The notes under the pieces were generated by a model. It was not told where the DNA came from, searched no databases, and worked only from the letters and a program-made list of their open reading frames with translations. From an uncultured Ignavibacteriaceae bacterium (GTDB lineage: Bacteria > Bacteroidota > Ignavibacteria > Ignavibacteriales > Ignavibacteriaceae): a DNA stretch of 64,000 nucleotides. Where the stretch lies: contig CAYMKU010000001.1 in assembly GCA_964391015.1 (NCBI GenBank), positions 148,805 to 212,804 on the forward strand, written 5' to 3'. Both the position numbers and the translations under genes were made by a program. Below, in pieces: positions 1 to 60,299 of the stretch. Positions within the stretch are counted from its first letter, which is position 1. Each line of letters starts with the position of its first letter.

Positions 1-960
1 AATGCTTAATGTTGTATGATTAGGATTTGTTGTCGAATTAAAATTATTTAGATGACAACTAACACATTGAGTTGACATTTGAGTATAGCCTGTTTGATGG
101 CAATTACTACAATTAACAGAGATGTGCGCTCCTGTTAACGGAAACTGCGTAGTGTTATGATCAAAACTTGCAGGCCTCCAATTTTGAATTACATGGCATT
201 GTTGACATTGTGTCGGGAAGTTGTTGCTTTGGTGAGGTGGATTTGAAGATGTTTCATAATCATTTCGATGACACGAATAACATGTTGTTGATAATCCCTT
301 GAAATTTCCTCCTTGTTCATGACACGAAAAACAATTCTGAATATTATGCCCGCCAACTAACGGGAAAAAATTATGCGCAAATATCTCAGCCGACCATTTG
401 CTCTGCAACATACTATGGCAATCCAAGCAGTTTGTAGAAAATCCCACAAGTGAATGATTTGGATTTTGAGTATTTCGGTATTCATTCTGATGACAATCTA
501 TACAGTTCACTCCTAAGGTCACAAAATTTAAATTCGGATAGCCCGCATGACACTCAATACAATCTGCCTTTAAATGTGAACCTATAAGCGGGAAACGACT
601 TTTCTGATGAAGTTCATTTCGATTTTCAATTAGCCATGTATCTGGTTTATGACATGATGAACAATCCAAGCCAACTGAATTTTGATGAACATCTTTATGA
701 CAAAAATTACAAGATGATTGCGCTTTAGAAAAAATCAAATCTGCATGACATGATGAGCAATTAATTGTGCTATGTTGTCCTGTCAATGAAAATCCTGTTT
801 CCGAATGATCAAAATTAATATGAGCAAGGTTTACCTTCCAATCAGTTGATTGATGACAATTTGCACAATCTAATCCCTTCAAGTCACCATGCGGCGATTG
901 ACCATAAATTGTCAAAACATTTATTGTTAAGACAATAATTATGAATGACAAGCTGCGCAT
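1..960 (-). CDS. multiheme c-type cytochrome, N-terminal part (gene continues past the left window edge)
   Basis: My own minus-strand translation gives ATG at 960-958 (MRSLSFIIIVLTINVLTIYGQSPHGDLKGLDCANCH...). It has a hydrophobic signal-like N-terminus and 12 CxxCH motifs before the edge. It is absent from the ORF track because no stop codon lies inside the window. Its start overlaps the stop of the upstream cytochrome gene by 22 nt. Confidence 0.85.
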   Translation of the reverse strand, partial: MRSLSFIIIVLTINVLTIYGQSPHGDLKGLDCANCHQSTDWKVNLAHINFDHSETGFSLTGQHSTINCSSCHADLIFSKAQSSCNFCHKDVHQNSVGLDCSSCHKPDTWLIENRNELHQKSRFPLIGSHLKADCIECHAGYPNLNFVTLGVNCIDCHQNEYRNTQNPNHSLVGFSTNCLDCHSMLQSKWSAEIFAHNFFPLVGGHNIQNCFSCHEQGGNFKGLSTTCYSCHRNDYETSSNPPHQSNNFPTQCQQCHVIQNWRPASFDHNTTQFPLTGAHISVNCSNCHQTGYTQMSTQCVSCHLNNFNSTTNPNHTTLSI

Positions 961-23032: not shown

Positions 23033-24220
23033 TTGGGTTTAAATTGGTTTTCCAAAAATTATAAGATATTTTTCCTAATAAAATTGAGGTGTTTTTTGAC
23101 TAAAGAAGATATTATCAAAGCTGTCCCAAAAGTTCTTCTTCACGATCATCTTGACGGCGGGTTAAGACCAGAAACTATTATTGAACTCTCCAAAGATTTG
23201 CAGTATAATAAACTTCCCACCAAAGATCCCGGAGAGTTAGCTGAGTGGTTTCATCGTGGTGCAAACAAGGGCAATCTTGTAGAATATTTACAGGGATTTG
23301 AGCATACCATTGCAGTAATGCAAACTAAAGAATCCCTTGAAAGAGTTGCGTACGAAATGATGGAAGATATGAAAAAAGATAATGTTTGTTATGTTGAAAC
23401 TCGATTTGCACCTGTGTTTCACACACAAACTGGACTATGGTACGAAGACATAGTTTCAGCTGTACTTGAAGGGCTTGAAAAAGGTAAAAGAGACTTTGGC
23501 GTTGGCTACGGCTTAATACTTTGCGGAATGCGTAACATGAAAAATACTTTGGAGATTGCCGAGCTTGCGGTAAACTTCAAAAAGCAAGGCGTAATAGGTT
23601 TTGATCTTGCAGGTGAAGAGGGCGGTTATCCACCAAAAAAACATATCGAGGCATTTCAATTTATCCAACGAGCAAATTTCAATATCACCATTCACGCAGG
23701 TGAAGCATTTGGTAAAGAATCCATTTGGCAGGCAATTCAATGGTGCGGTGCTCATCGAATAGGGCATGCAACTCATTTAATTGAAGACTTTACTTTTGAT
23801 AAGGATGGAAATGTGGTTGGTTTTGGTGACCTTGCTCAATACGTTCTGGACAAAAGAATTCCACTTGAAATATGCCTGTTAAGCAATGTTCACACCGGTG
23901 CTGTAGATAAAATAGTAAATCATCCGTTTGGTTTACTGTTCAAAGAGAAATATCGTGTTACTCTGAACACTGACGATAGACTTATGAGCGATACAACAAT
24001 GACTAAAGAATTCCTTGTTGCGATTGATGTCTTTAACTTAAACTTAGAGGATTTAGAAAAAATAACTATCAACTCGATGAAGTCTGCATTCATACCCTAT
24101 AAAGAACGTTTGAATTTTATTTACAATATTATCAAACCAGGTTATCAAAAGATGAAAGACAAATTACTCTCATTCACTTCATATCCGGAGAATCATGAAA
24201 AAACTGTTCACAAACTATAA
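23033..24220 (+). CDS. add: adenosine deaminase
   Basis: LLHDHLDGG, HAGE and NTDD metal and catalytic motifs. The true start may be the TTG at 23096, preceded by gaggtg, because the first 21 aa look non-native. Confidence 0.85.
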   Translation: MGLNWFSKNYKIFFLIKLRCFLTKEDIIKAVPKVLLHDHLDGGLRPETIIELSKDLQYNKLPTKDPGELAEWFHRGANKGNLVEYLQGFEHTIAVMQTKESLERVAYEMMEDMKKDNVCYVETRFAPVFHTQTGLWYEDIVSAVLEGLEKGKRDFGVGYGLILCGMRNMKNTLEIAELAVNFKKQGVIGFDLAGEEGGYPPKKHIEAFQFIQRANFNITIHAGEAFGKESIWQAIQWCGAHRIGHATHLIEDFTFDKDGNVVGFGDLAQYVLDKRIPLEICLLSNVHTGAVDKIVNHPFGLLFKEKYRVTLNTDDRLMSDTTMTKEFLVAIDVFNLNLEDLEKITINSMKSAFIPYKERLNFIYNIIKPGYQKMKDKLLSFTSYPENHEKTVHKL

Positions 24221-24530
24221 CTTTGAATTTGATAAAAATGAGAAGAAACTGCTTGCAACCTTCTGTAAACAAACTCTTAAACAAACAGTGGGAGATTCAA
24301 AATTCTTCGCTGAATCTAAAGCATTTAATTCAATTTTAGAAAAACTTAACGGCGGTTCTGATCCTGTCAAACTCACCAAAGATGAACGAACCCGCTTAGA
24401 ACATCAACTCGTTGAGAATGTAAAATTTCTTAAAAAGGATTTTGGCAAAAGCGGATTTATAAAAAAATTTCTTTATAGATCCATGATTAAACAATACGAA
24501 AATATTCTTGACAAACATTTTAAAGATTGA
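24195..24530 (+). CDS. hypothetical small helical protein (111 aa)
   Basis: ORF overlapping the end of add by 26 nt. No motif recognised. Confidence 0.4.
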
Positions 24531-24531
24531 A

Positions 24532-26196
24532 ATGATTTCTGAAAGTGAAAAAATAAAAATCAAAGCACCGCACGGAATTAAATTATCTTGTAAGGGCTGG
24601 ATACAAGAAGCAGCAATGCGTATGCTTATGAATAACCTCGATCCTCAAGTTGCAGAAAACTCTGCGGAGCTAATAGTATATGGTGGCAAAGGAAAAGCAG
24701 CAAGAAATTGGGAATGTTACGAAGCAATCCTCAAATCACTCAAAGGATTAGAAAATGATGAAACTTTATTAATTCAATCGGGAAAACCAGTCGCTATTTT
24801 TACAACACATGAAATCGCTCCAAGAGTTATCATTTCTAATTCTATGTTAGTACCTGATTGGGCAAACTGGGATGAGTTCAGACGGCTTGAATCGCTTGGA
24901 TTAACAATGTATGGACAAATGACTGCCGGAAGCTGGATTTACATCGGCACACAAGGAATTCTACAAGGTACTTACGAAACTTTTGCAGAATGTGCCCGTA
25001 AATATTTTGATGGAACTCTGAAAGGAAAATTTCTTTTAACTGCTGGATTAGGTGGAATGGGTGGCGCTCAACCACTTGCTGCTACAATGAATGGTGCTGC
25101 CTTTCTTGGAATTGATGTTGATAAAACCAGATTGGAAAAAAGAATTGAAACTGGTTATCTCGATAAAATGACAGATAATCTTGATGAAGCACTTAAGCTT
25201 GTACTTAATGCAAAGACTAATAAAATCCCATTATCAGTTGGGCTATTAGGAAATGCTGGTGAAGTTCTCCCAGATATTTTAAAAAGAAATATTATCCCTG
25301 ATATACTAACCGATCAAACTTCCGCTCATGATACATTGAACGGCTATGTTCCAATGGGAATGTCATTCGAACAAGCGAAAGATCTAAGAAGAAGTAATCC
25401 ACAAGAGTATATTAAGCTCGCTAAGATGACAATTGTAAAACATGTTGAGGCGATGCTAGAATTTCAAAAACGTGGTTCAACAACTTTTGATTATGGAAAC
25501 AATATCCGTGGAGAAGCAAAAGATAATGGTGTTAAAAATGCATTTGATATTCCCGGTTTTGTTCCTGAATTTATTCGTCCACTTTTCTGCGATGGAAAGG
25601 GTCCATTCAGATGGGTCGCTTTATCCGGTGATCCCAATGATATTTTTGTAACAGATGAAGCAGTCAAAAAAACTTTTCCCGAAAATAAGTCATTATGCAA
25701 TTGGATTGACTTAGCACAAAAGAAAGTTCACTTTCAAGGATTACCTGCTCGCATTTGTTGGCTTGGTTACGGTGAACGCGCTAAGATGGGAAAAATCTTT
25801 AACCGGCTTGTAGCAGATAAAAAAGTTAAAGCCCCAATTGTTATTGGGCGAGACCATCTCGACTGCGGTTCTGTTGCATCTCCAAACCGCGAGACAGAAG
25901 CAATGAAAGACGGTAGCGATGCTATTGCAGATTGGCCAATTTTAAATGCTCTACTAAATGCGATTGGCGGAGCAAGCTGGGTTTCAGTTCATCATGGCGG
26001 TGGAGTTGGAATAGGCAAATCTATTCATGCTGGAATGGTTGTAGTAGCGGATGGAACTGAGGAAGCAGAGAAAAGAATAGAAAGAGTTCTAACTTACGAT
26101 CCAGGTATGGGCATTGTTCGACATGCCGATGCAAATTATGAGCAAGCAATTGAAAATGCAAAAAAGTGGAATGTAAAAATTCCAATGTTGAAATGA
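24532..26196 (+). CDS. hutU: urocanate hydratase
   Basis: [13 protein letters not shown]-binding motif, [16 protein letters not shown] and the typical length. I prefer the ATG at 24532 over the TTG at 24508. Confidence 0.9.
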
Positions 26197-26208
26197 ACCA
26201 ATGCCTCT

Positions 26209-28260
26209 ATGAAAGAACTTGAAGATTTAAAAAGTTACCTCCTTAGTAAGAGCACTTCAAAATCTATTGATCATTTTGTCTTTCCACTATTCCAGAAATT
26301 ATTTTCAGATAAATTCAAGAAAGAAAACGATGCCCAAGGAGCTGATGGTTATGTCGAAGGTAAGTTAGTTATCGAATTGAAATCAGATACTGATGATTTC
26401 CTTCCAGGGTATTATCAAGCACTTCATTATGAAAAGAAAGGATTGAGTTTTTCTTCTCTCTGCGTAATTGCTCATAAATTTATTGGTGTTTGGAAAATTA
26501 AAGATTTACCTAAGGGAGTAAGGGAACTTGTAAAGAAAGCTGAACCCTTAAAAGCACCAAATGAAATCGGAAGAATCAATGCTAATAAAACAAATAAAGC
26601 GCTCAAAAAAGATATACTCGATTCAGCGATATTTCTTTTAGGTCCAACTGATTTGGAAGGTTTTTTTGAAAGTGGAAGTAACACACATTTAAATCAATTT
26701 GTACAGGTTTTAAAGAACCTTGATGCTGATAGAATTCAGATAGCACCACACAATTTTATTAGTAAAATCGAACTAATGAAAGATTTTTTTGATGATCCAC
26801 TACAAGCTATACATTCCTTCTATGCAATAGTTGGTTATTGGAATGCCACATCAAAAGTTATCCAAGTTGGTGATGGTGATTATATAAATGTTACTGAATA
26901 TTTAACCAACAGGGCGAGTGAGCCGATTTTTATTAAACCGAGGCAACGAGAAAAATTCAAAAAGTTTGTTGAAAGTCATTATGTTTTTGCTAACGAAGGA
27001 AGCGGCTTAACCGTTGATTATTATTTCAGCCGCTTCGATGAAGTAATTACAAAAATAAAACCTGAATATGCAATTCAGCACGGAATATTTTTTACCGATA
27101 ATAACCTTAGCAAGTTTGCTTTGTGGTTTGTACATAATTATTATGAAAAGAAGTTAAGCGATAAATATATAGTCCTTGACCCTGCTGGTGGTTCAGGTAA
27201 CCTTGTCACAAGCTGGCGGGGACATATTAAACATAAAATTGTTTCTGAACTCCAACCTGATTTACTAAGAACAATTGAAAGACGAATGAAGCTTGATAGC
27301 GAAGAGGTTCAAGCGGGATTTACAATTATTCCAAAGACAAGTGAAAACAAAGGATTAAACTTCCTTGATAAATCAGCTGAAGGATATGTTAGCGACTTAA
27401 TGAAAGAACTCAATCTTAAAAACATTAAGCTTGATAAACCTATTGCGTTCCTCTTAAACCCGCCTTACAAAAATACCGATGAGAACCTAAAAGAGAGAAT
27501 TAAAGGTGATGCTGTTTATGATATTCATAAATCTATTCTCGACATTACTGGTAATGATGCAGGCAAAGAGAGGTATCTAGCTTTTCTTGGTCAGATATTG
27601 AATATATCAAAACTTCAAATGGGTCAGTTAGATATAAAGACTCTAAACTTTGATAATGTTACTATTCCTAAACCTCTTGATAAAAAAATAAAAGAAACTC
27701 CTATTGTTTTACTTTTTAGTCCAACATCATGGTTAATTCCAAGACCAACTTATATCAATTTCAGAATGGAATGGGATAATTATTTTGTTTATGAAGATGG
27801 ATTTATTTTTTTAGGAAATGAGTTTTTCAAGATTACTGGAAGATTTCCCATTTCCTTTACCATATGGAGATACAAATACAATAAAAGTGGTAATAAAAAT
27901 ATCGTTCGGGTTAGAGATTTAACGCACATTACAAAGAAAGATTTAGAAAAGATTAACTGGGCAGCACTACTTGGTGATTTGAAAAAAGATTTAAGTGAAT
28001 ATGTTAGTAGGACAAGAACTATAAGGTTGGATAATTCAAGAGGAGATATCAGAAATACATTGCCTTTATTGCTATCGAATAAAGGAATTTTAATTCAACA
28101 ACCGAGGTACGACTACAGTACTGCTAAAAAAGAGCATGAGCATAATAAACTCATAAGCGGTTTTCCACTAAGAGATAAAAAAATCATTTTGAACTTAAGC
28201 GCAAGTGTGGAACGCCAGTGGGAAACTATGTTGGTTTTTATGATGATAATACACCTGTAA
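26209..28260 (+). CDS. MmeI-like PD-(D/E)xK nuclease head fused to a gamma-class N6-adenine DNA methyltransferase (Type IIG/IIL-like), upstream part of a frameshifted gene
   Basis: ADGYVEGKLVIELKSDTDDFLPGYYQALHY (D...ExK followed by QAxxY). GIFFTDNNL (motif X-like), IVLDPAGGSGNLV (SAM motif I), FLLNPPYKNT (motif IV). After an A7 tract at 28177-28183 the last 25 codons look out of frame. Confidence 0.7.
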   Translation: MKELEDLKSYLLSKSTSKSIDHFVFPLFQKLFSDKFKKENDAQGADGYVEGKLVIELKSDTDDFLPGYYQALHYEKKGLSFSSLCVIAHKFIGVWKIKDLPKGVRELVKKAEPLKAPNEIGRINANKTNKALKKDILDSAIFLLGPTDLEGFFESGSNTHLNQFVQVLKNLDADRIQIAPHNFISKIELMKDFFDDPLQAIHSFYAIVGYWNATSKVIQVGDGDYINVTEYLTNRASEPIFIKPRQREKFKKFVESHYVFANEGSGLTVDYYFSRFDEVITKIKPEYAIQHGIFFTDNNLSKFALWFVHNYYEKKLSDKYIVLDPAGGSGNLVTSWRGHIKHKIVSELQPDLLRTIERRMKLDSEEVQAGFTIIPKTSENKGLNFLDKSAEGYVSDLMKELNLKNIKLDKPIAFLLNPPYKNTDENLKERIKGDAVYDIHKSILDITGNDAGKERYLAFLGQILNISKLQMGQLDIKTLNFDNVTIPKPLDKKIKETPIVLLFSPTSWLIPRPTYINFRMEWDNYFVYEDGFIFLGNEFFKITGRFPISFTIWRYKYNKSGNKNIVRVRDLTHITKKDLEKINWAALLGDLKKDLSEYVSRTRTIRLDNSRGDIRNTLPLLLSNKGILIQQPRYDYSTAKKEHEHNKLISGFPLRDKKIILNLSASVERQWETMLVFMMIIHL

Positions 28261-29003
28261 GAATATCACAAGATAACTATTTTAGGATGTCAAATAGACC
28301 AGACAAGGTATGGTTCAGATTAGATAACGTTCTTATTAATGTTAATCAAACTAGAATTCAATCTGGCGCACCCGATAAATATGGTTTCTGTGCTTATGAC
28401 TTGGGAAGTGCAATCGCTACATTTTCTTGGTTTGCCATAACAAAAGCCATTAATGGCCGTTATCCGATTTGGGCAAATCAATATGACATTTGGAAACCAA
28501 AGATTACAAAAGAACTCGAGAGAGAATTTTACTCATTATGCTTTGCTTTTAGTTTAGTCGAGAACAGATGTGTCGTCACAAAGTTTGAAAAGGATAATCC
28601 GGTTAAAGATGCTCCAGAAGTATTTGTTGACAATCCGTTATGTCCTACAAATTCAGAATCATTTTGGTCAACAACTTTGGAACCATATGTGAAAGAAACG
28701 GGAAGTACACTTTCACTTCAGTTAATAGATTTAGTAAAAGATTTATATAAACTATGGAATATGAAATTCTGTAAAAGCGCATTTTTGTACAATGCTGGAT
28801 TAGAGAATGAAACATACTTCAAATACTTTGATTATGAAGATTTTCTAACGCCCTATTCTGGTTTAATACAAATTAGAAGATACGCTGAAATAAATTCAAA
28901 GACTGATTTATTAAATCTGTTTGACCAAGTTTCTGACAAAGCTAAAAATGTTAAAAATAAAATTTATGATTTACTTACAACCGAATTTAAATATTTCGAT
29001 TAA
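28218..29003 (+). CDS. C-terminal continuation (putative target-recognition region) of the Type IIG-like enzyme, in the -1 frame
   Basis: This frame is open from 28179, right after a TAA at 28176-28178, so it opens inside the A7 tract. Joining at the tract gives ...PLRDKK-NHFELKRKCGTPVGNYVGFYDD... and about 930 aa in total. The ORF-track start is a GTG with no obvious RBS. Confidence 0.55.
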   Translation: MGNYVGFYDDNTPVRISQDNYFRMSNRPDKVWFRLDNVLINVNQTRIQSGAPDKYGFCAYDLGSAIATFSWFAITKAINGRYPIWANQYDIWKPKITKELEREFYSLCFAFSLVENRCVVTKFEKDNPVKDAPEVFVDNPLCPTNSESFWSTTLEPYVKETGSTLSLQLIDLVKDLYKLWNMKFCKSAFLYNAGLENETYFKYFDYEDFLTPYSGLIQIRRYAEINSKTDLLNLFDQVSDKAKNVKNKIYDLLTTEFKYFD

Positions 29004-29021
29004 AAAGAAAGGATAAACTAA

Positions 29022-30212
29022 ATGAAACTAAAAGTATTAATTGCAGATAAATTTCCAGAAAAATATATTCAACAAATGAGGGACCTTGATCTGGATGTCA
29101 TTTATCAGCCAAAACTTGGGGAAAAGGATTTACCCGAAGCGGCAAAAGATGTTGACATTCTCATAGTCCGTTCAACCATTGTAAATGAAGAAACTATTTC
29201 ATCAAGCAAAAAATTAAATCTAATCATTCGTGCCGGCTCAGGTGTAAATAACATTGCAATTTCTGCTGCAAATAAAAAAGGAATTTATGTAACTAATTGC
29301 CCCGGTATGAATGCAGTGGCAGTTGCCGAATTAGCTTTTGGCTTGATGATTGCACTTGACCGTTTTATTCCTGACAATGTAATTGATTTCAGAAATGGAG
29401 TTTGGAATAAAGATAAATATTCAAAAGGCATGGGACTTAAAGGCAAAACTTTGGGATTAATTGGAGTTGGAAATATAGGTAAAGAAGTTGCGAAGCGTGC
29501 ACTCGCATTTGAAATGAATGTTTATGGGAAAGATATTACCCGGATTGAAGGAGTTCAGATTAAAGATTTCAACGAAATGGATCAGCTTCTTCCTTTGTGT
29601 GATATTGTTACCATCCACCTACCGGCTACTCCACAAACCAAAGGACTGTTCAACAAGCAAATGCTCAGTCACATGAAAAACGGCGCCTTGCTTATCAATA
29701 CATCAAGACATGATGTAATTGTTGAAGATGATCTTCTTGAAGCAATCAAAGAAAAAAATCTTCGTGTAGCCGTAGATGTTTTTAAGGGAGAGCCAGAAGG
29801 AAAAGCAGGAGAAGTTAAATCCAAGCTGCAAGATAATCCGAATATTTATGTAACTCATCATATTGGTGCTTCAACTGAACAAGCACAGGATGCTGTTGCA
29901 GAAGAAACTGTAAACATAATCAAACACTATGTCCACAGCGGAGTAATTGACCACTGGGTTAACAAAGCAAAAATTATTGATGCGAAATATCAACTTGTTG
30001 TTAAGCATTACGATAAACCTGGAGTGCTTGCAGGAGTGCTTGATGTTATAAGAAGCGGTAATATTAATATTGAGGAAATCGAGAATATTATTTTTGAAGG
30101 CGGTATTGCAGCTTGCTGCACAATGAAATTACAAAGTACAGTTACTGCGGATATGCTGAAAAAGATGAGCGAAAATCCAAATGTGATTAGCGTTAGCCAC
30201 GTAGAAATTTAA
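29022..30212 (+). CDS. serA: D-3-phosphoglycerate dehydrogenase-type 2-hydroxyacid dehydrogenase with C-terminal ACT domain
   Basis: NAD fold GLIGVGNIGKEVAKRA, catalytic-region HHIGAST, and an ACT-like tail (LVVKHYDKPGVLAGVLDVIRSGNINIEE). Confidence 0.8.
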   Translation: MKLKVLIADKFPEKYIQQMRDLDLDVIYQPKLGEKDLPEAAKDVDILIVRSTIVNEETISSSKKLNLIIRAGSGVNNIAISAANKKGIYVTNCPGMNAVAVAELAFGLMIALDRFIPDNVIDFRNGVWNKDKYSKGMGLKGKTLGLIGVGNIGKEVAKRALAFEMNVYGKDITRIEGVQIKDFNEMDQLLPLCDIVTIHLPATPQTKGLFNKQMLSHMKNGALLINTSRHDVIVEDDLLEAIKEKNLRVAVDVFKGEPEGKAGEVKSKLQDNPNIYVTHHIGASTEQAQDAVAEETVNIIKHYVHSGVIDHWVNKAKIIDAKYQLVVKHYDKPGVLAGVLDVIRSGNINIEEIENIIFEGGIAACCTMKLQSTVTADMLKKMSENPNVISVSHVEI

Positions 30213-30267: not shown

Positions 30268-31026
30268 TCACACAAACTTCACATCAATCATATCTTGAAT
30301 TATTCCGTGGAAGTACGGCAATTCTAAAAGTCGTTTGATTCCTTCTAGATCCTGCTCATCAAAATTGAATACAACATGCTGCAAATGATCGGTAAGATAT
30401 TTCCTGGAATTCAAAAAAAATACTTGATTCATTCCCTCAAATATTGTCAACGGATCCATAGATGTCATTATTTCTTGATACTTTGAGTGAACCAGCTTCA
30501 ATAAATCCTCAGACTCGCTTGCAAAAACGAAATTAACATACGGTGCAGAAATCAATTCAATCATTTCTTCGGTAAAACTAATCGCAGAATCAAGATTTCC
30601 TTCCTCAAAATTTCTATCTCCAACAACAACCCGATTTTTATTTGACACTTCACTATTTATTTTTTCGAGTGACAGCTGAGCATCCATGTTGTAGATTTCA
30701 TTAAAAAGAATCTTCGTAAGTATCCCTTCATTGGTCGAAGTATCTCCTGCAAGCGTTATTTCACGAATTAATTTTTCTTTAGGATCGAAATAAATATATG
30801 AGTTACTAATTGATTCATCGAATGAAACACCCAAGCTTTTAGAAATGAAAAAATCTTTATGATTTAACAAATCCATTAGTGGGATTAATCCAACTGCACA
30901 TTTATTATTAGTTATATGCTTTGACAGCAAAGATGATGGAAGAAATTTGAGGTTAGTTTTATCTTCTACAGTTAAAGTAGAAGAAATTATTCGAGCAAAA
31001 ATATTATCTGGTAAAAAAATCTCCAT
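30268..31026 (-). CDS. MqnA/MqnD-like (futalosine-pathway) binding-fold protein, tentative
   Basis: 252 aa. The pattern ...CAVGLIPLMDLL....FISKSLGVS....SNSYIYF...I.EITLAGDTSTNEGILTKILF resembles my recollection of the VitK2-biosynthesis (MqnA) family. Weak call. Confidence 0.35.
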   Translation of the reverse strand: MEIFLPDNIFARIISSTLTVEDKTNLKFLPSSLLSKHITNNKCAVGLIPLMDLLNHKDFFISKSLGVSFDESISNSYIYFDPKEKLIREITLAGDTSTNEGILTKILFNEIYNMDAQLSLEKINSEVSNKNRVVVGDRNFEEGNLDSAISFTEEMIELISAPYVNFVFASESEDLLKLVHSKYQEIMTSMDPLTIFEGMNQVFFLNSRKYLTDHLQHVVFNFDEQDLEGIKRLLELPYFHGIIQDMIDVKFV

Positions 31027-46517: not shown

Positions 46518-49500
46518 TTAATAACGTTGCAACTGTTTCTGAGGCATAATAATCGAAAACTTAAGAACTTTGTCTCCATATTTTGGAGATGAGACAATTG
46601 CTAAATACAAACCGGAAGCGACCCTTATTCCATTCTCATTCTGTAAATTCCAGTTTAAGAATGGAGATGTGGGAGAAGTTTTATCTCCCTGATCTAATGT
46701 TCTTATCAATGTTCCGGACAGAGAATATATTTTAATAGTAACTTCCTCAGGCAAGTTTGAAAAAGTTACAAATGGTTCATCAGAGGGACTATTTGTATAG
46801 CTTGTTGCAACGTTAAACCCGTACAAAGGATTAGGAAAGACGTTTACTCTATTGAATAACGCTTTTTCTTCCTCAGCACTGAGCACTCCGCCTTTTACAG
46901 TTTTAAAAACAAATTCATCACTTGGCGTATATGGATATGTACTAATCGGAACTACCATTTTATCACCGGCAGAGTAAAACTGCGTACTATTTATTCTTTC
47001 TAAGGCGACAACATACAAAGCATCAAAATAAGGAGATGCCGCTATCTTTCTCTCATCGTTTGATACTGTGGCACCTGTCGGAATGTTGTAATTTGAACCA
47101 CCTCTCAGGTCAGCCCAGATAGTATTGGTTCCAGATACAAAACCGCCTTTGTAAATTTGTTGATTTCCATTTGGATCATAAGTTTGATTAAAGATCAAAA
47201 TGAATTCACCAGTCGTATCAATGCTGGCTCCGGGATCCCAAATCCCATCAGGTTTTCCACCTTCACCTCGAGCTTTCTCAATAAACCCAACTGCAAGCTG
47301 TCTCGTCTCTCCAAAGCCGCCGGTCTCTGTTGCGTAATCTTGAACCCATACCGTAAATGGAACATCAACATAGCCAACACCAAATTGTCCCAGGGGTCCT
47401 TTTCCAACAGTATCGGAAGCTAAAATTCCTTCTGCATAAACATAACTATTTTTTCTGCTGATTACTGTTCCCTTATATCCATTTATGTATCTATATGCTT
47501 TGCCATTTTCACCAAACCTAATTTCTATTCTTCGCAACTTATCAGCACGAATATATTTCCCATTTAAGACTGACAAACCTGGCAGGGAACCAATTTTTTG
47601 AGATATACCTGAATCAGAGGAAACATAATATACTTTCGAGTGTGTTGTATTATACCAAGCAGTAGATGTTTGACCCGATAAAGTTCCAACGGCAGGAATT
47701 TTTTCTGGCAACTTAACAATAAATCCATCGGTAATCTTTTTTGCAACCGTAGGATCATCTCCGATATAATCTTTTGAGGACTCTATAAGTGTGATTCCTG
47801 TAGTAGTATTTTTCAACTTCCAAAACGGTGAATATGGAGCTTGTGTGCTGTCTATTCCAAAAGTTACTTTATATTCATCTCCTGTTAATAATTCCTTATC
47901 CACAATATCATATTTTAATTTTGCTCCGCTTCCTCCTTTTGTACTAACGCTAAGTGCTTCAACTGGAGGAGTATATTCATCTTCTGCAAAGGTTACTGTA
48001 AATATTCTTGGAACGTTCTCAACTTCACCTACAAATGAACTTGATGACAGATAGTAATCACTAAAAATGAATGCAGAAGTATCAACCGATTTATTCACTA
48101 ATGCATCATGATTTACTGCATATGAAGTTATTGCGAAATAATATGGCTTACCTTTTATCAGATTTCCGCCGGTGAATGGATCCTTAGTAATCCTAAGTCT
48201 GATCCTTCCAGTTTCGTCGCTCCTATAAGTAGTAGAATCTAATTTAGTTGAGCTTGCTGGATACAACAGCTCGATCCCACCAGTATTACCATTTTCCTTA
48301 TACAAATTGTTAATAAAATCATTCACCTGATATGTTGCAACGGTGGTCTTATTCTGCAACCCGCTTATTTGATCTGCAGTTGAATTGGTTTTATAAGCAA
48401 AGACATTATATCCTTTGAATTTGATGTCATACGTAGCCGTCTTTCTTTGATAACTCACCTGATCTTTAGTTTTCCACGTCAGATCAATAAAATTTTCACT
48501 TGTACTGGTTTCAACAGTTACTGGAGGCGGAGAAGATGGAGCAACAAAGTTATTATCAAAAATATTCTGAGCACCATCGTCAATTCTTCTGGCTACAGTA
48601 ATAGAGTTAAGTGCATCTGAACCTTGACCGAAAACATAAGCAACTACGATTTCTTTTTCGTCACCCTTCGTAAGAGTGAAAGGACCAGTGTTTGACATCA
48701 TTCTGTAATCACCTTCAAGAGTATTGATCCACCCTCTATTCGTAACAGGATCTCCCGAAAACCACAATGTTGGATTCACAGTATTGCAGTCCACACCACC
48801 TCTCACCTCACCATAAGAAAAAGTACAAGGATTCGGTGCATCACCCAATCTTGTTTTACCGATTGTATAGTATCTTGCCTCAGTAGCATTGCTGGGATCA
48901 TTAACGACAGGATCCCCATTTATATACATTACAAAAGAGGAAATTCCTAAATTCTTTGCTCCAGGGTAGTTTTTTATACCCTTAACTTGTCCTCTCACAC
49001 TATGCGCAGTATCAATAGGTGTATCTATTCCATCATCGTACGTTCCGTTTCCATTCACATCTGTATATGTTTCACCAGCTATATACGAAAGTGGGCCCTG
49101 AAAGAAGTCAATTAAAAACGCTGGTGGCTGCGTACCATACTGTTGATGATCATCTGGTCCATTATTATAAACAAAACCAGAGTTTCGAGGAACATCACAG
49201 CCGACAAAATCATCGGCAGAGTTTCCTATGTCTGGATCAGCCCATACACCAAAATAACAATCTGTTAAGGTGTTAGGTTCGTTTGCATTGCCAAGCCCTA
49301 CGTACTTAAATCTATACCTGACAAAGAGGATGTTCCCGATAGCTCCAGCAGAAGCGAATGCAAAAACGGTTTGTCTAATTTCCATACCTAACGGTGCAAT
49401 TGTGTTCCAACGACGTTGAGGGGTTGGAGTACCATCCCAATAAACACACCAAACAGTCTCATCTCCAATTAAGTCTGGTCTATCTTCATCAGCATCCCAG

Positions 49501-50060
49501 ATACTGTTACCATTTTTATCTACAGGATTGTAAATTCCATCATTATCACCATCATAAAAATCAGCACCTAAATCTACCGCATCTTTCCAATCAATCCAGC
49601 TTTCACCGAAAGGAATATCGGAAGCTTTTAAAACATATATTTGAGACCGCGGGTCGGTCTGCCCATGAGCAACATCACCAGCCACATAATCTTGTACTAA
49701 GGTGGAGGGTGCAACTGCATTTACAAACATATTGCCTCCAGCCATACCACTTAGGAAAAATCCTCCTGAGAAAAGAGCCACGTCACCAGCAAATTTTCCA
49801 CCCGCACCACTAATAATGGGATTGGGATCGGGAATATTCACTTCACCTAAAGCCCCAACTCTATTCATAGGCATATTTACATTGTTTATGTATAACCTAT
49901 AGGCATCTCCAGCTTTTCCAGATTGAATTTTACTAAGCTGAGATGAATTTGGTTGAAAGGTTTTAGTACCTTTCTTGTCGTCTCCCCCGTAAGCAACCAC
50001 GAATAAAAGGAGTACTAATATCACAACCGAATAAATGTTTGAAATTATTTTTATTCTCAT
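46518..50060 (-). CDS. very large secreted protein (1180 aa) with a T9SS C-terminal sorting domain
   Basis: Signal peptide. C-terminus VNVFPNPLYG...IKIYSLSGTLIRTL...GLYLAIVSS...KFSIIM has the T9SS CTD pattern. Acidic D-x-D-x-D-G-type loops (DGDNDGIYNPVDKNGNSIWDADED, DVNGNGTYDDGIDTPID). Confidence 0.75.
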   Translation of the reverse strand: MRIKIISNIYSVVILVLLLFVVAYGGDDKKGTKTFQPNSSQLSKIQSGKAGDAYRLYINNVNMPMNRVGALGEVNIPDPNPIISGAGGKFAGDVALFSGGFFLSGMAGGNMFVNAVAPSTLVQDYVAGDVAHGQTDPRSQIYVLKASDIPFGESWIDWKDAVDLGADFYDGDNDGIYNPVDKNGNSIWDADEDRPDLIGDETVWCVYWDGTPTPQRRWNTIAPLGMEIRQTVFAFASAGAIGNILFVRYRFKYVGLGNANEPNTLTDCYFGVWADPDIGNSADDFVGCDVPRNSGFVYNNGPDDHQQYGTQPPAFLIDFFQGPLSYIAGETYTDVNGNGTYDDGIDTPIDTAHSVRGQVKGIKNYPGAKNLGISSFVMYINGDPVVNDPSNATEARYYTIGKTRLGDAPNPCTFSYGEVRGGVDCNTVNPTLWFSGDPVTNRGWINTLEGDYRMMSNTGPFTLTKGDEKEIVVAYVFGQGSDALNSITVARRIDDGAQNIFDNNFVAPSSPPPVTVETSTSENFIDLTWKTKDQVSYQRKTATYDIKFKGYNVFAYKTNSTADQISGLQNKTTVATYQVNDFINNLYKENGNTGGIELLYPASSTKLDSTTYRSDETGRIRLRITKDPFTGGNLIKGKPYYFAITSYAVNHDALVNKSVDTSAFIFSDYYLSSSSFVGEVENVPRIFTVTFAEDEYTPPVEALSVSTKGGSGAKLKYDIVDKELLTGDEYKVTFGIDSTQAPYSPFWKLKNTTTGITLIESSKDYIGDDPTVAKKITDGFIVKLPEKIPAVGTLSGQTSTAWYNTTHSKVYYVSSDSGISQKIGSLPGLSVLNGKYIRADKLRRIEIRFGENGKAYRYINGYKGTVISRKNSYVYAEGILASDTVGKGPLGQFGVGYVDVPFTVWVQDYATETGGFGETRQLAVGFIEKARGEGGKPDGIWDPGASIDTTGEFILIFNQTYDPNGNQQIYKGGFVSGTNTIWADLRGGSNYNIPTGATVSNDERKIAASPYFDALYVVALERINSTQFYSAGDKMVVPISTYPYTPSDEFVFKTVKGGVLSAEEEKALFNRVNVFPNPLYGFNVATSYTNSPSDEPFVTFSNLPEEVTIKIYSLSGTLIRTLDQGDKTSPTSPFLNWNLQNENGIRVASGLYLAIVSSPKYGDKVLKFSIIMPQKQLQRY

Positions 50061-50099
50061 TTTTTCGCCTTATTCTTTTTCAAAAAAAATTCAGAATTA

Positions 50100-52964
50100 T
50101 TATAAAGGTATGGTTGAGAAGTTGACTCTCAATCCCAACCTTATTGTTCTTGGAATACCGAAATTTGCTGGGTTTCTCTCATAACTCATATAATCCTGAC
50201 GATAACCTTCTCCGTTATTTGCAATAATTGCTTTTCCTTCATCCGTATTTAACCAGCCAGTAGTATAAGGGCTTCCGGTTGATCTATAAACGGTAACTAT
50301 ATTATCTGCATCGAGCAGATTCTCAATCCAGATATATGGAGAGATTCTGAAATTTTCGAACACAAAAGATTTTTCGACCTTCATATCAATTCTGAACGAA
50401 CTTGGACCATATGTTGAATTTATATAACCTCTTGTTGAAGAGATTAATCCGTTATCACCCAACAAATTCCATTTATCCATTGGAGTATAGGGTCGTCCGC
50501 TATTGTAAGATAGAACGAAGTTAGCATTAAATAGTTCAAGGAAACCAAGTTCACCTTCCGGAACATAGAAATCAAGATTAACTACCGCTGTGTGTCGTTG
50601 ATCGAAAGTTAAAGGAGCAATAACTTTGGGCGCTAATCTATCCGTGTTTCTAAAAACTGATGTTGAACTAGAACTAGTTGATGAACCCGTACCTTCAGCA
50701 AGCGAATAAGTATATTGAGCAGAAATACTTAAATAGTTTAATCTGCTTATATCCAATGAAAATGCCAACCCTTTTGTAGTTCCAAAATCAGTATTTTGGC
50801 TGTAGTAAGCATTAAGGATTTGACCGCCTCCTGTACGTCTAAATTGTGCATTCGCATCATTGACTAAACCAACAATGTTTTTATAAAACAACGTAATATT
50901 TAAGGCAGCTACATTTCCAAGTATTTGTCTGAAGCCAACTTCATACTGCGTTGTTTCTTCACTATTTAATCCACCATTTTGTGCACCTTGAGGTTCATAG
51001 GTCGTCCAATCATTATAATCATAAGGTCCAGCATACATATCATTCAACTCTGGCAACTGAATAAATTTTCCATACTGAGCGTGAAATACTGTTGATTGAG
51101 TAACTGGAAAACCAAGACCAAGCCGCGGTGAAAATTTTAGTTCAGCTTTTTTCAAAACGAAATCTTCATTGTCCCATCCATTTGGATCTAAACCACCTGC
51201 ATATGGAAGTGAAGGATTTTTCCATTCATAAGACTTAACATCGAAATAATCCATTCTAATGCCAGCGTTAATTACTAAATCTTCCAGCTCGTATCTATCT
51301 TGAATATAAGCATAAGCTATCAATGGATTGCGTGGCCTCTGAAGCAGGTAAGGGAAATTTGGATCGTCTGAAGTATAGTCTAATCCAACCTTGTTCTGAC
51401 CCGTAACATCATATCCATAAACAAAAGGTGATAAGTTTGCATACTTTTGGACATCAGTTAAGCTATCAGCTTGCTCAATAAGAAGCTGGGGATAAATTCC
51501 ATAACCACGAACCATAGTGTATGTTAACCCGCCACCCAGTTCTAATAAATGATTTTCAACCTGGGAAGTAAAATCAAAATCTCCTGTAAATGCATCATTC
51601 TCTCGATGTTGATACAAGCCAGTACTGTATCCATAAGGTCTGAAAACACCATTATTATCTACTGTTCTAGTCCGTTGACCATTACCAAGTAAGGTTACAC
51701 CAAGTTCATTAGCCCAACGAGCGCTGTCACCATAAGCGAAAAGATCATTTTTAAAGAAAGGATTATATCTTTCGTAATCGAAAGTTCTGTAACCTAAACT
51801 CAGGTTCCAAAAAGTTGAACCGCTTATAGTCTGAGATATTTTAGAACTAAGAGAAAGGTTATCTTCGGTAAACTCATCAAAAAACTTGGAATCATTTTTA
51901 GTTAATCTAAAATCAAAAACTTTAGCTAATCGTGTATTATAGATACCGCCAAAATTTAATGTGAATTCTCCCATCCTATGATTTGTTTTACCACTTATTC
52001 TCCAAACTGATGCAGAATTATTTGGTAAAGTTTCATATGTTTTATTAATCGAAGGAAAATCTAGCGTTATGGCGCTTCTATCGGCATCTTTGTACCAGCC
52101 GCGTTCAGCAGAAATAAAGAAAGTGTGTTCAGGAATGTCGGGAATAATTGGACCACTTATCGTCGCTGAATACTCATTAAATCCATATTTATCCGGGAAT
52201 TTTTCTGTAAGCGAGGAAGCAACTATATCAGCTAAAACATTATAATTTGGCTTTCCAGATTTTGTAGTTACATTTATGATACCAGATTGAGCTTGTCCAT
52301 ACTTAGCTTCATACCCACCAACCTGAAAAGAGATTTGTTCAATCGCAGAATTGCTAACTTGAGCAACTGTACCTCTATTATATAAATTATTTTGAGGAAC
52401 TCCGTCAACTATGTAAAGTACTTCACTGCCTCGCCCACCGCGAATATTTATGCTTGCATTACCTTCAACACCGCCGCTACCTTCTTGAATAACAACACCG
52501 GATTGAAGTGATGCAATATTCTGAACACCTTTTACAGGTATTCTGGAAATCTGATCCGCATCAATAACCTTAACAGTATTAGTCGCCTTTTCCTCAAAGA
52601 ATTTTTTATCCTCAACTACAATTTCAGGTAAGCTGAAATCAGTAGAAAGCTCTACGTTCAATTCATATGTAATACCCGCAACAACCCTAACTTCTTTTAT
52701 TGTTTTAGGGGCATAACCAACATAACTTACCTTAACATTGTAAGTTCCGGGAGTAATATTAAGAACGAAATACTCTCCATCAACATTAGTTGCAGCACCT
52801 TGGTCGGTATTTAATATAACTATGTTAGCACCAATGAGTGCTTCACGTGTATTTGCGTCAATTACTTTGCCGCTTAATTTACCAACGCCGGTTTGTGCAA
52901 AAACAGGAGATCCTAACATTAGCACCAATATTGTGCTAAGAAATTTAATAGTAAGATTTTTCAT
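50100..52964 (-). CDS. TonB-dependent receptor-like outer-membrane protein with a carboxypeptidase-regulatory-like N-domain
   Basis: Signal peptide, GKLSGKVIDANTREALIGANIVI...GTYNVKVSYVGY (CarbopepD_reg-like), a plug-like segment (VKVIDADQISRIPVKGVQNIASLQSGV), and a long beta-barrel. Confidence 0.8.
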   Translation of the reverse strand: MKNLTIKFLSTILVLMLGSPVFAQTGVGKLSGKVIDANTREALIGANIVILNTDQGAATNVDGEYFVLNITPGTYNVKVSYVGYAPKTIKEVRVVAGITYELNVELSTDFSLPEIVVEDKKFFEEKATNTVKVIDADQISRIPVKGVQNIASLQSGVVIQEGSGGVEGNASINIRGGRGSEVLYIVDGVPQNNLYNRGTVAQVSNSAIEQISFQVGGYEAKYGQAQSGIINVTTKSGKPNYNVLADIVASSLTEKFPDKYGFNEYSATISGPIIPDIPEHTFFISAERGWYKDADRSAITLDFPSINKTYETLPNNSASVWRISGKTNHRMGEFTLNFGGIYNTRLAKVFDFRLTKNDSKFFDEFTEDNLSLSSKISQTISGSTFWNLSLGYRTFDYERYNPFFKNDLFAYGDSARWANELGVTLLGNGQRTRTVDNNGVFRPYGYSTGLYQHRENDAFTGDFDFTSQVENHLLELGGGLTYTMVRGYGIYPQLLIEQADSLTDVQKYANLSPFVYGYDVTGQNKVGLDYTSDDPNFPYLLQRPRNPLIAYAYIQDRYELEDLVINAGIRMDYFDVKSYEWKNPSLPYAGGLDPNGWDNEDFVLKKAELKFSPRLGLGFPVTQSTVFHAQYGKFIQLPELNDMYAGPYDYNDWTTYEPQGAQNGGLNSEETTQYEVGFRQILGNVAALNITLFYKNIVGLVNDANAQFRRTGGGQILNAYYSQNTDFGTTKGLAFSLDISRLNYLSISAQYTYSLAEGTGSSTSSSSTSVFRNTDRLAPKVIAPLTFDQRHTAVVNLDFYVPEGELGFLELFNANFVLSYNSGRPYTPMDKWNLLGDNGLISSTRGYINSTYGPSSFRIDMKVEKSFVFENFRISPYIWIENLLDADNIVTVYRSTGSPYTTGWLNTDEGKAIIANNGEGYRQDYMSYERNPANFGIPRTIRLGLRVNFSTIPL

Positions 52965-53059
52965 CTTTTCTCCACCATTTTGTTAATTAAAACTTTTGTC
53001 GAACTCTTTATCAACAATTAATAATAATTACATTTACAAAATCTATTTAAATCAAAAAA

Positions 53060-53116: not shown

Positions 53117-54967
53117 TTACTTCATCAACATCATTTTCTTTGATGCAGTAAAGCTGCCAGCGTTAATCATATAAACATAAAGTCCTGAAGCTAAATTTGA
53201 TGCATCAAAAACAACTTCATGAGAACCAGCATCTTTTGTTGTATTTAATAAGTCAGCAACTTCTCTACCAAGTACATCAAAAACCTTTATTGATACATTT
53301 GATTTCTCAGCCAATGTATAAGAGATTTTTGTTGAAGGGTTAAATGGGTTCGGATAATTTTGAGATAACTCAAAGCTATTTACAGTTAAGTTTCCATCAT
53401 TTATACCAGACGGTATTGGAATAGCCAATCTCTCATAATTCCATGAACTATTGTTATTTCCAGTATTGTTGGTTGCAAATAAGCTTGTTCCTGGAATATC
53501 ATCAATCATGTATAAGAAGTTAACTATCATTGAGTCTGAATTGGTAGTGCTGATTTCAAGTAAATTGTTCGGACATGGATATGATTCCTGAACATGTTGA
53601 CGGCTTGCATTTGGTACTAAAGCCGGTGCAGACCAATTCACTCCGCCATCAATAGAATAGGCATAATAAAGATCTGTATATACTATTGGAGTTGGATCTG
53701 TAGCAGTCGGTGTCCAAAAATTCATTGTACTTGAACCAGGCGTTCCAGAATATTCGGGACCCTGCCATAGTACGACAATTTTTGATCCATCTGTACTAAT
53801 ACAAGGAACTGGATAAGCATTACCAATTCCATTACCAGGGCGATTAGTAACCGGATCACCCGGATTAGCATCTATATCTAACTCAACTGCTGTACTTGTT
53901 AAAGCAATCCAATGTTTATCTCGGCTATTCCAGTATAATGCAGGAAATGCAAAACCAGTATCTGCTTGAGCCCTGTACGCATATCCATTGATAGTTACGT
54001 GTTTCACACCATTGTTATCTACAGCACCATTCATCTGCGCGAAATTTTCGAATATTGGATAATATCCTGTTCTATTGAAGACAGGCGTCAATCCATCTTT
54101 TCCAAGTAATTCAAACTGCCATGTGCTGCCTTGATCAGTTGATGACTTAATTCCAACGAAATCGGCGGAATCAGCAGCAACCCCACCTAATCCACCATTT
54201 CCACCAAATCCCCAGCATTGTGCTGTAAACAGATGGTTACCATTCGGAGATTTTCGAAAAGTATATTCCAAATTTAATCCAGCATCTAGATATGGCTGAG
54301 TTGTTGGATTTAACGATCCAAAAGAACTCCAAGTTACACCTTGATCAGTTGATTTATACAAAAGACCACAACTTGCACCAGCAGGGTTGGTTGAAGTTGT
54401 TGCCAAAATAGTCCCATTGTCCAAATAAACAAATTCTGGATATAAGTTAGCTAATGTCGCTGTACCAAAGGTAGGCGTTAATGTGGTCATATCAACAGTA
54501 GAGACATAAGTACTTGGGCTTCTATGATATAATACAATTGCTTTTCCTGATAGTGGGCCTGTCTCGCCAACTTGCACACTTCCCCAACCTGCACTCGTTC
54601 CAGATGAAACTTCAAAATCTGTAAAACCATCAACTCTGTTTCCAACAATCATCTTTATTTTTCTACTAGATGCCACAGCATCAAACCTTTGCATTGCAAC
54701 TGCAACAAGATCCTTTTTTCCATCTGCAGTAAAATCATACATGTAAACCATGTTGGGGATGGAATTGTTACCAGCATAATCATATTCAGTGAATATGAGC
54801 TGATCGCTAGTAGGTTTGCTGTAATGTTGAGGAGCATCAACAAAATTGTTGATCTCATTTACAGAATTTGGATCTATATGAATAGCTTTCAGTGGTTTCT
54901 GTTGGGAAAATCCAACTCCTGAGATGAAAACCAACAAAGCCAAAACTGTGAAAGATTTTTTTAGCAT
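53117..54967 (-). CDS. BNR/Asp-box repeat protein with a T9SS C-terminal sorting domain
   Basis: Three SxDxGxTW-type Asp-boxes (STDQGVTWS, STDQGSTWQ, SIDGGVNWS). C-terminal LSQNYPNPFNPSTKISYTL...GLYVYMINAGSFTASKKMMLMK. Confidence 0.8.
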   Translation of the reverse strand: MLKKSFTVLALLVFISGVGFSQQKPLKAIHIDPNSVNEINNFVDAPQHYSKPTSDQLIFTEYDYAGNNSIPNMVYMYDFTADGKKDLVAVAMQRFDAVASSRKIKMIVGNRVDGFTDFEVSSGTSAGWGSVQVGETGPLSGKAIVLYHRSPSTYVSTVDMTTLTPTFGTATLANLYPEFVYLDNGTILATTSTNPAGASCGLLYKSTDQGVTWSSFGSLNPTTQPYLDAGLNLEYTFRKSPNGNHLFTAQCWGFGGNGGLGGVAADSADFVGIKSSTDQGSTWQFELLGKDGLTPVFNRTGYYPIFENFAQMNGAVDNNGVKHVTINGYAYRAQADTGFAFPALYWNSRDKHWIALTSTAVELDIDANPGDPVTNRPGNGIGNAYPVPCISTDGSKIVVLWQGPEYSGTPGSSTMNFWTPTATDPTPIVYTDLYYAYSIDGGVNWSAPALVPNASRQHVQESYPCPNNLLEISTTNSDSMIVNFLYMIDDIPGTSLFATNNTGNNNSSWNYERLAIPIPSGINDGNLTVNSFELSQNYPNPFNPSTKISYTLAEKSNVSIKVFDVLGREVADLLNTTKDAGSHEVVFDASNLASGLYVYMINAGSFTASKKMMLMK

Positions 54968-55352
54968 AACGTTCTCCTTTTTTGATGAAATAAAATATTA
55001 ATTATCAATAAAATCCTGAGAATTATTTACACTACATCAATTAATACACAACTTTTTATATTTGTTTTATTAAAACACGCTTAAAATTACCATTCATGCA
55101 GTTTATTGTCAAGTTTTTCAATGATTTTCAACAATTACGAAATTATATCATTTCATCTGAAAGTCAAGATGTAAATTAACCACTAAAATTATTTTTGCAC
55201 CAAGCAAATATTATCAACGCCGTCTATCAGCAATTTCATAAAGAACTCTTTAGCAATCAACCGCACTGTTTCTATCAATCGGATAGAAACAAGATTTCTC
55301 ACTTGAATTGAATAGCCATAGAAAAAAGTAATAGAACCTTTATCTACCCAAA

Positions 55353-60143: not shown

Positions 60144-60299
60144 GAAGGGGACTAATCCTCGAACTAAAATTTTATTAATGATTTGAAAAAGAAAAGTATA
60201 ATACGTGCGGTGGAAGTATAAAGATTTTTGTGGCTAAAAAAAATGTTTGCGAGATTAATTTTTTTGTTGTAATAATAAAAAATTTTTTACGGAAGTTCT

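Follow-up and report, generated by a model that had tools for sequence, protein, structure and literature searches.

The gene at the hutU-serA junction

We analysed a 64,000-nucleotide stretch of DNA from an uncultured Ignavibacteriaceae bacterium (contig CAYMKU010000001.1), called the window here. Between its hutU and serA genes lies a gene that is split into two overlapping open reading frames (ORFs). It is separated from hutU by 12 nt (26197-26208) and from serA by 18 nt (29004-29021). One A added to the run of seven A (A7) at 28177-28183 gives a protein of 931 residues, and residue numbers below refer to this joined protein. We argue that the gene probably encodes a single-chain restriction-modification enzyme working like MmeI, DrdV and BpuSI, inactivated here by a one-base deletion. 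Our verdict is that it belongs to an uncharacterised sequence family of Type IIG/IIL-like single-chain enzymes that the libraries do not name. The kind itself is already known. An earlier note, made from the letters of this DNA, had quoted motifs, ORFs, both gaps and the hutU and serA flanks, and all were found where it had placed them. The features are listed in Table 1.

Table 1. The split gene, its predicted parts and its two flanking genes, in window coordinates
Feature	Residues	Coordinates	Strand	Basis or remark
Whole gene: pseudogene or OFF allele of a predicted 931-residue nuclease-methyltransferase-target recognition domain (TRD) chain		26209..29003	+	End-to-end homologue alignment
ORF1		26209..28260	+	683 residues
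ORF2		28218..29003	+	261 residues; frame differs from ORF1; overlap 43 nt
Predicted PD-(D/E)xK-type nuclease domain	~1-112	26209..26544	+	AlphaFold2 secondary structure, motif
Nuclease motif D46-x9-E56-x-K58 ... Q70-x3-Y74, ADGYVEGKLVIELKSDTDDFLPGYYQALHY	45-74	26341..26430	+	Conservation
Spacer/connector	~113-285	26545..27063	+	AlphaFold2; predicted local distance difference test (pLDDT) mostly 80-95
Predicted gamma-class N6-adenine methyltransferase	~286-575	27064..27933	+	Motifs, Foldseek
Motif X, GIFFTDNNL	292-300	27082-27108	+	
Motif I, IVLDPAGGSGNLV	321-333	27169-27207	+	
Motif IV, FLLNPPYKNT	414-423	27448-27477	+	
Alpha/beta region	~576-815			Contains the variable core at ~586-735
Variable mosaic TRD core	~586-735	27964..28412	+	Highest column entropy in the protein
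Frameshift site, A7 run (GAT AAA AAA ATC)		28177..28183	+	Intact relative has A8
Conserved distal recognition/DNA-clamp region	~736-815	28413..28652	+	Invariant ENRCVVTKFE..DNP and NPL motifs
C-terminal helical bundle	816-931	28653..29000	+	AlphaFold2
hutU (urocanase), upstream flank		24508..26196	+	Three Urocanase Pfam domains, E 1e-60 to 1e-96
serA-type D-2-hydroxyacid dehydrogenase with ACT domain, downstream flank		29022..30212	+	

A family missed by the domain libraries

A search of 5.8 billion proteins found 647 relatives. Almost all of the best 120 have a length of 907-974 residues, and they cover 100% of the joined query at 53-83% identity. None of these 120 has a Pfam domain, and every source labels them "hypothetical". 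The earlier note had described a nuclease-methyltransferase fusion in one chain, and intact homologues are indeed single ORFs of about 930 residues. Hundreds of them, ~920-935 residues long, can be aligned with the joined protein over its whole length. A profile search of 1.84 billion cluster representatives gave 393 matches with about 15 full-length clusters, and the matches do not spill into other methyltransferase families. The family is present in 145 of 185,579 species representatives. Its distribution is sporadic and covers Bacteroidota, Ignavibacteriota, WOR-3, Verrucomicrobia, Spirochaetota, Nitrospirota, Planctomycetota, Desulfobacterota and others. A tblastn search of 72,556 plasmids with P0002 (79% identity, the closest intact full-length homologue with long context) found no match. 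One of 2.9 million viral contigs carries the gene, and an origin as a phage gene was rejected on that count.

No Pfam model reached its threshold in the window protein, 33 close relatives or 9 distant relatives. Five models recur just under it: N6_Mtase, MmeI_Mtase, Eco57I, PDDEXK_3 and MmeI_N. No helicase or ATPase domain of Pfam was matched in the window protein and the relatives scanned. Scanning both ORFs against NCBIfam gave only TIGR02987 (E 5e-4, 19 bits against a cut-off of 353), and a PADLOC scan of both (PADLOC-DB v2) gave only MTase_II (E 0.01). With no Pfam, NCBIfam or PADLOC model at threshold, the idea of a divergent or new subfamily holds.

Some members depart from the full-length form. 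P0178, a metagenomic representative of 881 residues, has lost the D/E/K residues, motif I and NPPY and has kept the conserved C-terminal half. It is a degenerate and presumably inactive paralogue. P0158, P0162, P0165, P0179, P0192, P0194 and others are 400-750 residues long, match the C-terminal half only and then continue for at least 200 further residues. They could represent fragments, spare cassettes that were called as genes, or recognition and C-terminal parts fused to other domains.

Predicted anatomy of the protein

AlphaFold2 models have a mean pLDDT of 82 for the full protein and 87 for residues 1-270. Taken with conservation, they give a layout of five parts that is shared with MmeI, DrdV and BpuSI: nuclease, spacer, methyltransferase, recognition module and helical bundle. 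The predicted topology of the nuclease domain is alpha-beta-beta-beta-alpha-beta-beta-alpha. D46 lies just ahead of beta-2 in the models, and E56 and K58 lie at the end of beta-3. The order of elements and the placement of catalytic residues have been described in the same way for the MmeI nuclease (PMC2731913). None of the 124 aligned family members differs at D46, E56, K58, Q70 or Y74, and clades of 29-37% identity also have D/E/K. The earlier note had made its reading depend on D/E/K being conserved in homologues, and 124 of 124 retain them. Motif, spacing, topology and invariance suggest a nuclease of the PD-(D/E)xK type, for which cleavage is predicted. The spacer that follows corresponds in position to the helical spacer of MmeI (residues 156-300).

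The sequence link to characterised enzymes is faint. A profile of 34 close homologues found only noise among the PDB sequences (eL38, MLKL). BpuSI and MmeI came up only once the profile was broadened with the clade at 29-37% identity. Against 177,635 distinct PDB sequences the broad profile has two matches at E <= 10, BpuSI (0.013) and MmeI (0.13). On MmeI it places D46/E56/K58/Q70/Y74 on D70/E80/K82/Q94/Y98 with identical spacing, in an alignment that is below significance. Since the match is below threshold it is a resemblance and not proof of homology. On BpuSI it covers residues 290-337, and motifs X and I fall at equal residue numbers. The earlier note had quoted strings of MmeI, and PDB chain 5hr4 does read ..VDLFWPGILLIEMKSRGKDLDKAYDQALDY.. 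and ..FFDPACGCGNF... Its claim of an MmeI-type head holds for the spacing of the five residues and falls short of a significant profile match.

In the methyltransferase region DPAGGSGNL (324-332) comes ahead of NPPY (417-420), which is the gamma-class order. Neither the DPAGGSG core nor NPPY differs in more than one of the 124 family members, and DPACGSGNL and NPPYR take their place in the distant clade. Foldseek matches of the full model to PDB structures include DrdV (Type IIL, E 3e-9), LlaBIII (ISP, 1e-8), BpuSI (IIG, 8e-8), LlaGI (ISP, 1e-7), HsdM (Type I, 7e-6), BrxX (BREX, 1.5e-5), BsaXI (IIB, 1.5e-4), the Type II methyltransferase M.BseCI (4.6e-4) and MmeI (IIL, 3e-3). CamA is also among the matches of the methyltransferase region. 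All 17 matches at E <= 1e-3 are DNA adenine methyltransferases from restriction-type systems. The domain would be expected to methylate adenine in DNA, going by motifs and model. The Type IIG/IIL class named by the earlier note agrees with this list, in which DrdV, LlaBIII, BpuSI, LlaGI, HsdM, BrxX, BsaXI and MmeI are among the best matches.

The earlier note could name nothing in the C-terminal half. This half resolves into a mosaic module for recognition and a bundle of helices, like that of MmeI. A conserved GF(M/Y)DDxTPVR segment of the TRD core is flanked by two sub-blocks (~600-675 and ~706-735). The bundle is modelled with helices at 819-831, 834-855, 886-895 and 899-926 (pLDDT ~90-97).

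A putative swappable recognition module

In a comparison of 124 proteins, how similar two members are at residues 600-735 says little about how similar they are elsewhere (r = 0.21). Pairs with 88-95% identity in the rest of the protein have just 34-43% in the recognition core, and pairs with 55% in the rest reach 72% in it. There are at least 4 types of recognition cassette. Sliding-window comparisons give sharp breakpoints and two semi-independent sub-blocks in the core. The same can be seen within a single genome. The Bacteroidales metagenome-assembled genome (MAG) GMC5.concoct.141 has three copies of the gene (L039, L042, L074). Two are 96% identical and have the same cassette, and the third is 77% identical elsewhere and 43% in the recognition core. 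This mosaic pattern is the one expected if restriction and modification depend on a single recognition domain, whose exchange alters specificity. Different cassettes would then correspond to different DNA target sequences.

Two Cytophagales MAGs have a second copy of the gene's last ~320-355 codons directly behind a full-length homologue (L067 4344-5507 and L069 9054-10103). No start codon is evident in this copy. Its 3' 880 nt are 83-86% identical to the gene's own 3' end, and its recognition part is unrelated to that of the gene. It may be a silent spare specificity cassette.

Insertion and genomic context

The earlier note considered the gene to be accessory, a possible insertion, and proposed comparing the hutU-serA junction in relatives. 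We sampled 64 related metagenomic loci that have hutU followed by serA. In 60 of them the spacing between the two genes is 4-687 nt. This gene lies at the junction in only 1 of the 64, the contig of the 79% homologue, and 3 have other inserts of ~1-1.3 kb, two of which are a P-loop ORF. The closest relatives, with hutU ~90% identical, have a 139-nt spacer there. The gene is an insertion at a small variable junction, because 62 of 64 related junctions are without it and the closest relatives have the short spacer. It is not universally present at this position, and the accessory reading is borne out. A foreign base composition was considered and rejected: the gene has 32.3% GC and the window 34.3%, and GC at third codon positions is like that of the neighbours.

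The inserted gene replaces the 139-nt spacer entirely in the window, and neither a target duplication nor a mobility gene was seen. The empty 139-nt spacers of the closest relatives (L098 7663-7801, L095 2699-2836) contain several short repeats of the CTTTGTG/CACAAAG type in both orientations. In two close relatives, L096 (7663-8931) and L097, the junction has a different ORF of ~400 residues between hutU and serA, with a P-loop (..GEYGIGKSS..). L121 has another insert of ~1 kb.

The gene had been called solitary, and it is. When the flanking ORFs of 85 loci were clustered to look for a conserved partner, no family occurred in more than 4 loci. HsdS or HsdR genes do not flank the gene in the window or in the 85 other loci. 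The gene contexts are unrelated to each other and range from housekeeping operons to an integrase-bearing island. That island is in L004 (3570-7452), where a phage-type integrase, an HTH_17 excisionase-like gene and several small ORFs with no assigned role lie just upstream of the homologue. This points to carriage on an integrative element in that genome. In Leptospiraceae (L011-L013, 1-3800) a variable block lies upstream of the homologue. It has SLFN/AlbA_2-HATPase_c_4 genes in two samples and AAA_21 and HNH genes in another, and it looks like a defence-island neighbourhood.

Several other genes of the window have no Pfam match. A conserved 111-residue ORF (24195-24530, +) always separates hutU from the adenosine deaminase gene in relatives. 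A conserved 252-residue ORF (30268-31026, -) lies between serA and rplS. A 1,183-residue ORF (46518-50069, -) adjoins a TonB-dependent receptor (50100-52982), in a region that also has a BNR protein sorted by the type IX secretion system (53117-54997) and DnaE (56682-60233).

The frameshift

The whole gene is read in frame 1 before the A-run and in frame 0 after it, up to the stop codon at 29001-29003. Past the run ORF1 continues for 24 out-of-frame codons to its stop at 28258-28260. The frames can be joined only in the interval between the frame-0 stop at 28176-28178 and this ORF1 stop, and the interval contains the A7 run. The joined protein aligns unbroken with homologues across the junction (..SGFPLRDKKNHFELKRKCG..). 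In a relative with ~88% nucleotide identity the run is A8 instead of A7. The window sequence recurs at 100% identity, A7 included, in two independent Logan assemblies of separate sequencing runs, SRR14932634 (over 5,051 nt) and SRR14932511 (over 4,159 nt). Since both read assemblies reproduce the frameshift, we take it to be a real allele and this copy to be truly disrupted or phase-OFF. The frameshift lies inside the recognition module, so the 683-residue product should be without target recognition. The single deletion would leave the restriction-modification system OFF or dead in this genome. Apart from the one lost base the gene has no further decay: both halves are open and the conserved residues are intact.

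It is worth considering whether some full-length enzyme is still made. The A-run could be a contingency tract, or the gene could be recoded, by reversion to A8 in part of the population, by transcriptional slippage, or by -1 ribosomal slippage on GAT AAA AAA ATC. A homopolymer within a restriction-modification gene is a classic place for phase variation, and the frameshift is in just such a place. An extra A or a -1 shift restores the ancestral, homologue-like ..DKKNHFELK.. exactly, and the undecayed state of the gene fits too. However, the run is not conserved, and the syntenic homologue at 79% identity reads GAC AAT AAG AAT. Both read sets assemble to A7 and A8 was not seen. A7 or A8 is also short for efficient slippage. 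We consider this scenario unlikely. As a family trait, programmed frameshifting was rejected outright, since the absence of the run from the syntenic homologue means it is not a family-wide recoding signal.

Proposed mechanism and its alternatives

An analogy to MmeI, DrdV and BpuSI suggests a mechanism for intact members, in which a recognition module in the C-terminal part would read a short DNA sequence. The central gamma-class methyltransferase would flip out an adenine of this site and methylate it with S-adenosylmethionine, which would mark host DNA as self. At an unmethylated site on phage or other foreign DNA, the N-terminal PD-(D/E)xK nuclease, held off by the spacer, would cut beside the site. 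Cleavage probably requires two enzyme molecules. Since both activities would share the recognition module, a swap would alter restriction and protection together, and this would explain the cassette-like mosaic in the family. The same analogy suggests a role in defence against phages. In this genome the gene entered the hutU-serA junction and later lost one A of an A8 run inside the recognition module. The population sampled therefore encodes a truncated product of 683 residues and a remnant of 261.

It must be noted that several points weigh against this scenario. The curated models of Pfam, NCBIfam and PADLOC all miss their thresholds, and the best of the latter two lie far below their cut-offs. 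The full-model Foldseek matches have low TM-scores (0.2-0.3) and reflect local similarity only. Such scores are expected with multi-domain proteins that have mobile domains. The isolated N-terminal 270 residues have no Foldseek match at E <= 1e-3; the best are BpuSI (0.08) and 3ijm (0.41), the latter a restriction-endonuclease-like fold. What supports the nuclease call is thus motif, spacing, topology and conservation. In the parts other than the recognition module, conservation is unusually high (at least 50% identity across phyla), and higher than we would expect of most restriction-enzyme families. Finally, the window copy is frameshifted and gives no sign of a working system in its host.

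These points could be taken further. The family might be a distinct class of single-protein defence enzyme, with a rigid scaffold, a specificity exchanged by cassette, and a cleavage mode or substrate unlike that of MmeI or BpuSI. Its members could cut with another geometry, need modified or structured DNA, or have a nuclease tied to something besides unmethylated sites. Some genomes could draw their cassettes from a silent spare copy behind the gene. We think such a class improbable, and about as improbable as phase variation.

One could also argue for an orphan DNA adenine methyltransferase that serves epigenetic or regulatory ends, with a nuclease-like head that is vestigial or only binds DNA. 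Cleavage is only predicted, and the isolated N-terminal fold lacks a significant structural match. The scaffold is unusually conserved across phyla and the gene sits within a string of metabolic genes on the same strand. Against this, none of the 124 members departs from D/E/K and distant clades keep them too, as would be expected if the catalytic site is retained. In P0178, the only clearly degenerate member, the nuclease and methyltransferase motifs were lost together. The sporadic distribution, which resembles that of horizontally transferred genes, the absence from sister loci and the swapping of cassettes suit defence better than regulation. An orphan methyltransferase is quite unlikely, and less probable than either scenario above.

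A further alternative is an error of sequencing or assembly in an organism whose gene is intact. It would need only a single base in an A8 run, and homopolymer length errors are frequent in some sequencing technologies. However, the two independent Logan assemblies carry the same A7, and the ORF map of the 64-kb window has no other split gene evident despite 70 runs of at least seven A or T. We regard an error as very improbable.

The protein could be the methyltransferase or recognition subunit of a multi-gene system whose partners are elsewhere, like PglX of BREX, HsdM of Type I or a Type ISP enzyme. Foldseek does match BrxX/PglX, HsdM and LlaGI/LlaBIII. But the best neighbour cluster occurs in 4 of 85 loci, PADLOC has no match to system components beyond the weak MTase_II, a helicase or ATPase domain does not fit in 931 residues, and the protein has a nuclease motif and a recognition module of its own. 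There is only the slimmest chance that this is correct. The least credible proposal is an RNA or protein methyltransferase fused to unrelated domains: NPPY is present in some of these too and Foldseek has a weak match to the rRNA methyltransferase 7pnt (E 0.03), but all 17 matches at E <= 1e-3 are DNA adenine methyltransferases, the PDB sequence matches are only BpuSI and MmeI, and a swappable module with a sporadic distribution is untypical of housekeeping RNA or protein methyltransferases.

Significance

A single-chain restriction-modification enzyme is an ordinary finding for this genome, where it would be an accessory defence gene that was inserted and then switched off by a one-base deletion. 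The family is the larger matter. If we are right, it is compact, widespread and unannotated in the libraries, with ~145 species representatives and hundreds of metagenomic homologues. Its enzymes would combine a scaffold of high conservation with a recognition module that is small and exchangeable. The MmeI family owes its usefulness in the search for new DNA specificities, and in engineering them, to the same pairing. Intact members could yield new recognition sequences and a second scaffold for engineering, and there are cultured sources of them in Dyadobacter sp. CY356 and Cognataquiflexum nitidum LQ15W. An annotation gap would close as well, since the homologues are all called "hypothetical protein" and Pfam, NCBIfam and PADLOC-DB v2 miss the family.

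Comparison with known systems

MmeI is divided into nuclease (1-155), spacer (156-300), methyltransferase (301-620), TRD (621-825) and helical bundle (826-919) (PMC4833311). The window protein has the same domain order with similar boundaries (~1-112, 113-285, 286-575, 576-815 and 816-931). Like the MmeI family and DrdV it is a single chain in the range of ~920-1010 residues, and DrdV is its best structural match (E 3e-9). The D-x9-E-x-K-x11-Q-x3-Y spacing is identical to that of MmeI. Homologues of MmeI have neither a second methyltransferase nor a conserved neighbour (PMC2731913), and the same is true here. In both cases a TRD diversifies on a conserved scaffold. The differences lie in the sequence. 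Membership of the MmeI family has been defined by whole-length similarity to MmeI at E < 1e-20 (Morgan et al. 2009, PMC2731913). The window protein has no such similarity to MmeI (the profile match at E 0.13 is not significant), although its catalytic residues do align with D70, E80 and K82, so it stands outside the MmeI family proper. No MmeI_* Pfam model reaches its cut-off in the window protein or in 43 relatives, the best being MmeI_Mtase with 20.2 bits against 27. Motif I is DPAGGSGNL (DPACGSGNL in the distant clade) rather than DPACGCGNF, motif IV is NPPY, and the nuclease domain is ~40 residues shorter.

BpuSI (Type IIG, PDB 3s1s) is a chain of 878 residues that also has an N-terminal PD-(D/E)xK nuclease, a spacer, a gamma-class methyltransferase and a TRD. 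It is the best PDB sequence match (E 0.013), matches the full model at E 8e-8, and is the top though non-significant match of the isolated N-terminus. A motif I of the DPAAGSGNL type is shared. However, the sequence similarity is limited to short motifs, and the Eco57I and N6_Mtase Pfam models stay below threshold. BpuSI also does not have the long conserved C-terminal helical bundle of the window protein and MmeI.

The other candidates differ in what they contain. The Type ISP enzymes LlaGI and LlaBIII are single chains with an N-terminal Mrr/PD-ExK nuclease, a gamma-class adenine methyltransferase and a C-terminal TRD, and they are strong structural matches (E 1e-8 to 1e-7). But they have a large helicase-like ATPase of superfamily 2 between nuclease and methyltransferase and reach ~1,500 residues. 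The window protein has ~170 residues in that place, and its AlphaFold2 model has no RecA-like domains. In PglX/BrxX of BREX a recognition region is fused to a gamma-class adenine methyltransferase (Foldseek E 1.5e-5 to 2e-4), but PglX has no nuclease head and works in a conserved multi-gene operon. Here there is a conserved D/E/K head, there are no conserved neighbours, and PADLOC has no BREX match. A Type I HsdM would be expected with HsdS and HsdR, and these are not alongside. That leaves the wider Type IIG/IIL kind. The chain that has the methyltransferase also has conserved D, E and K as its predicted catalytic residues, the motifs follow the gamma-class order, the mosaic TRD differs between homologues, and the gene is self-sufficient. 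Judged by sequence and model, the window protein has every property of this kind that can be computed, and we would place it and its family there.

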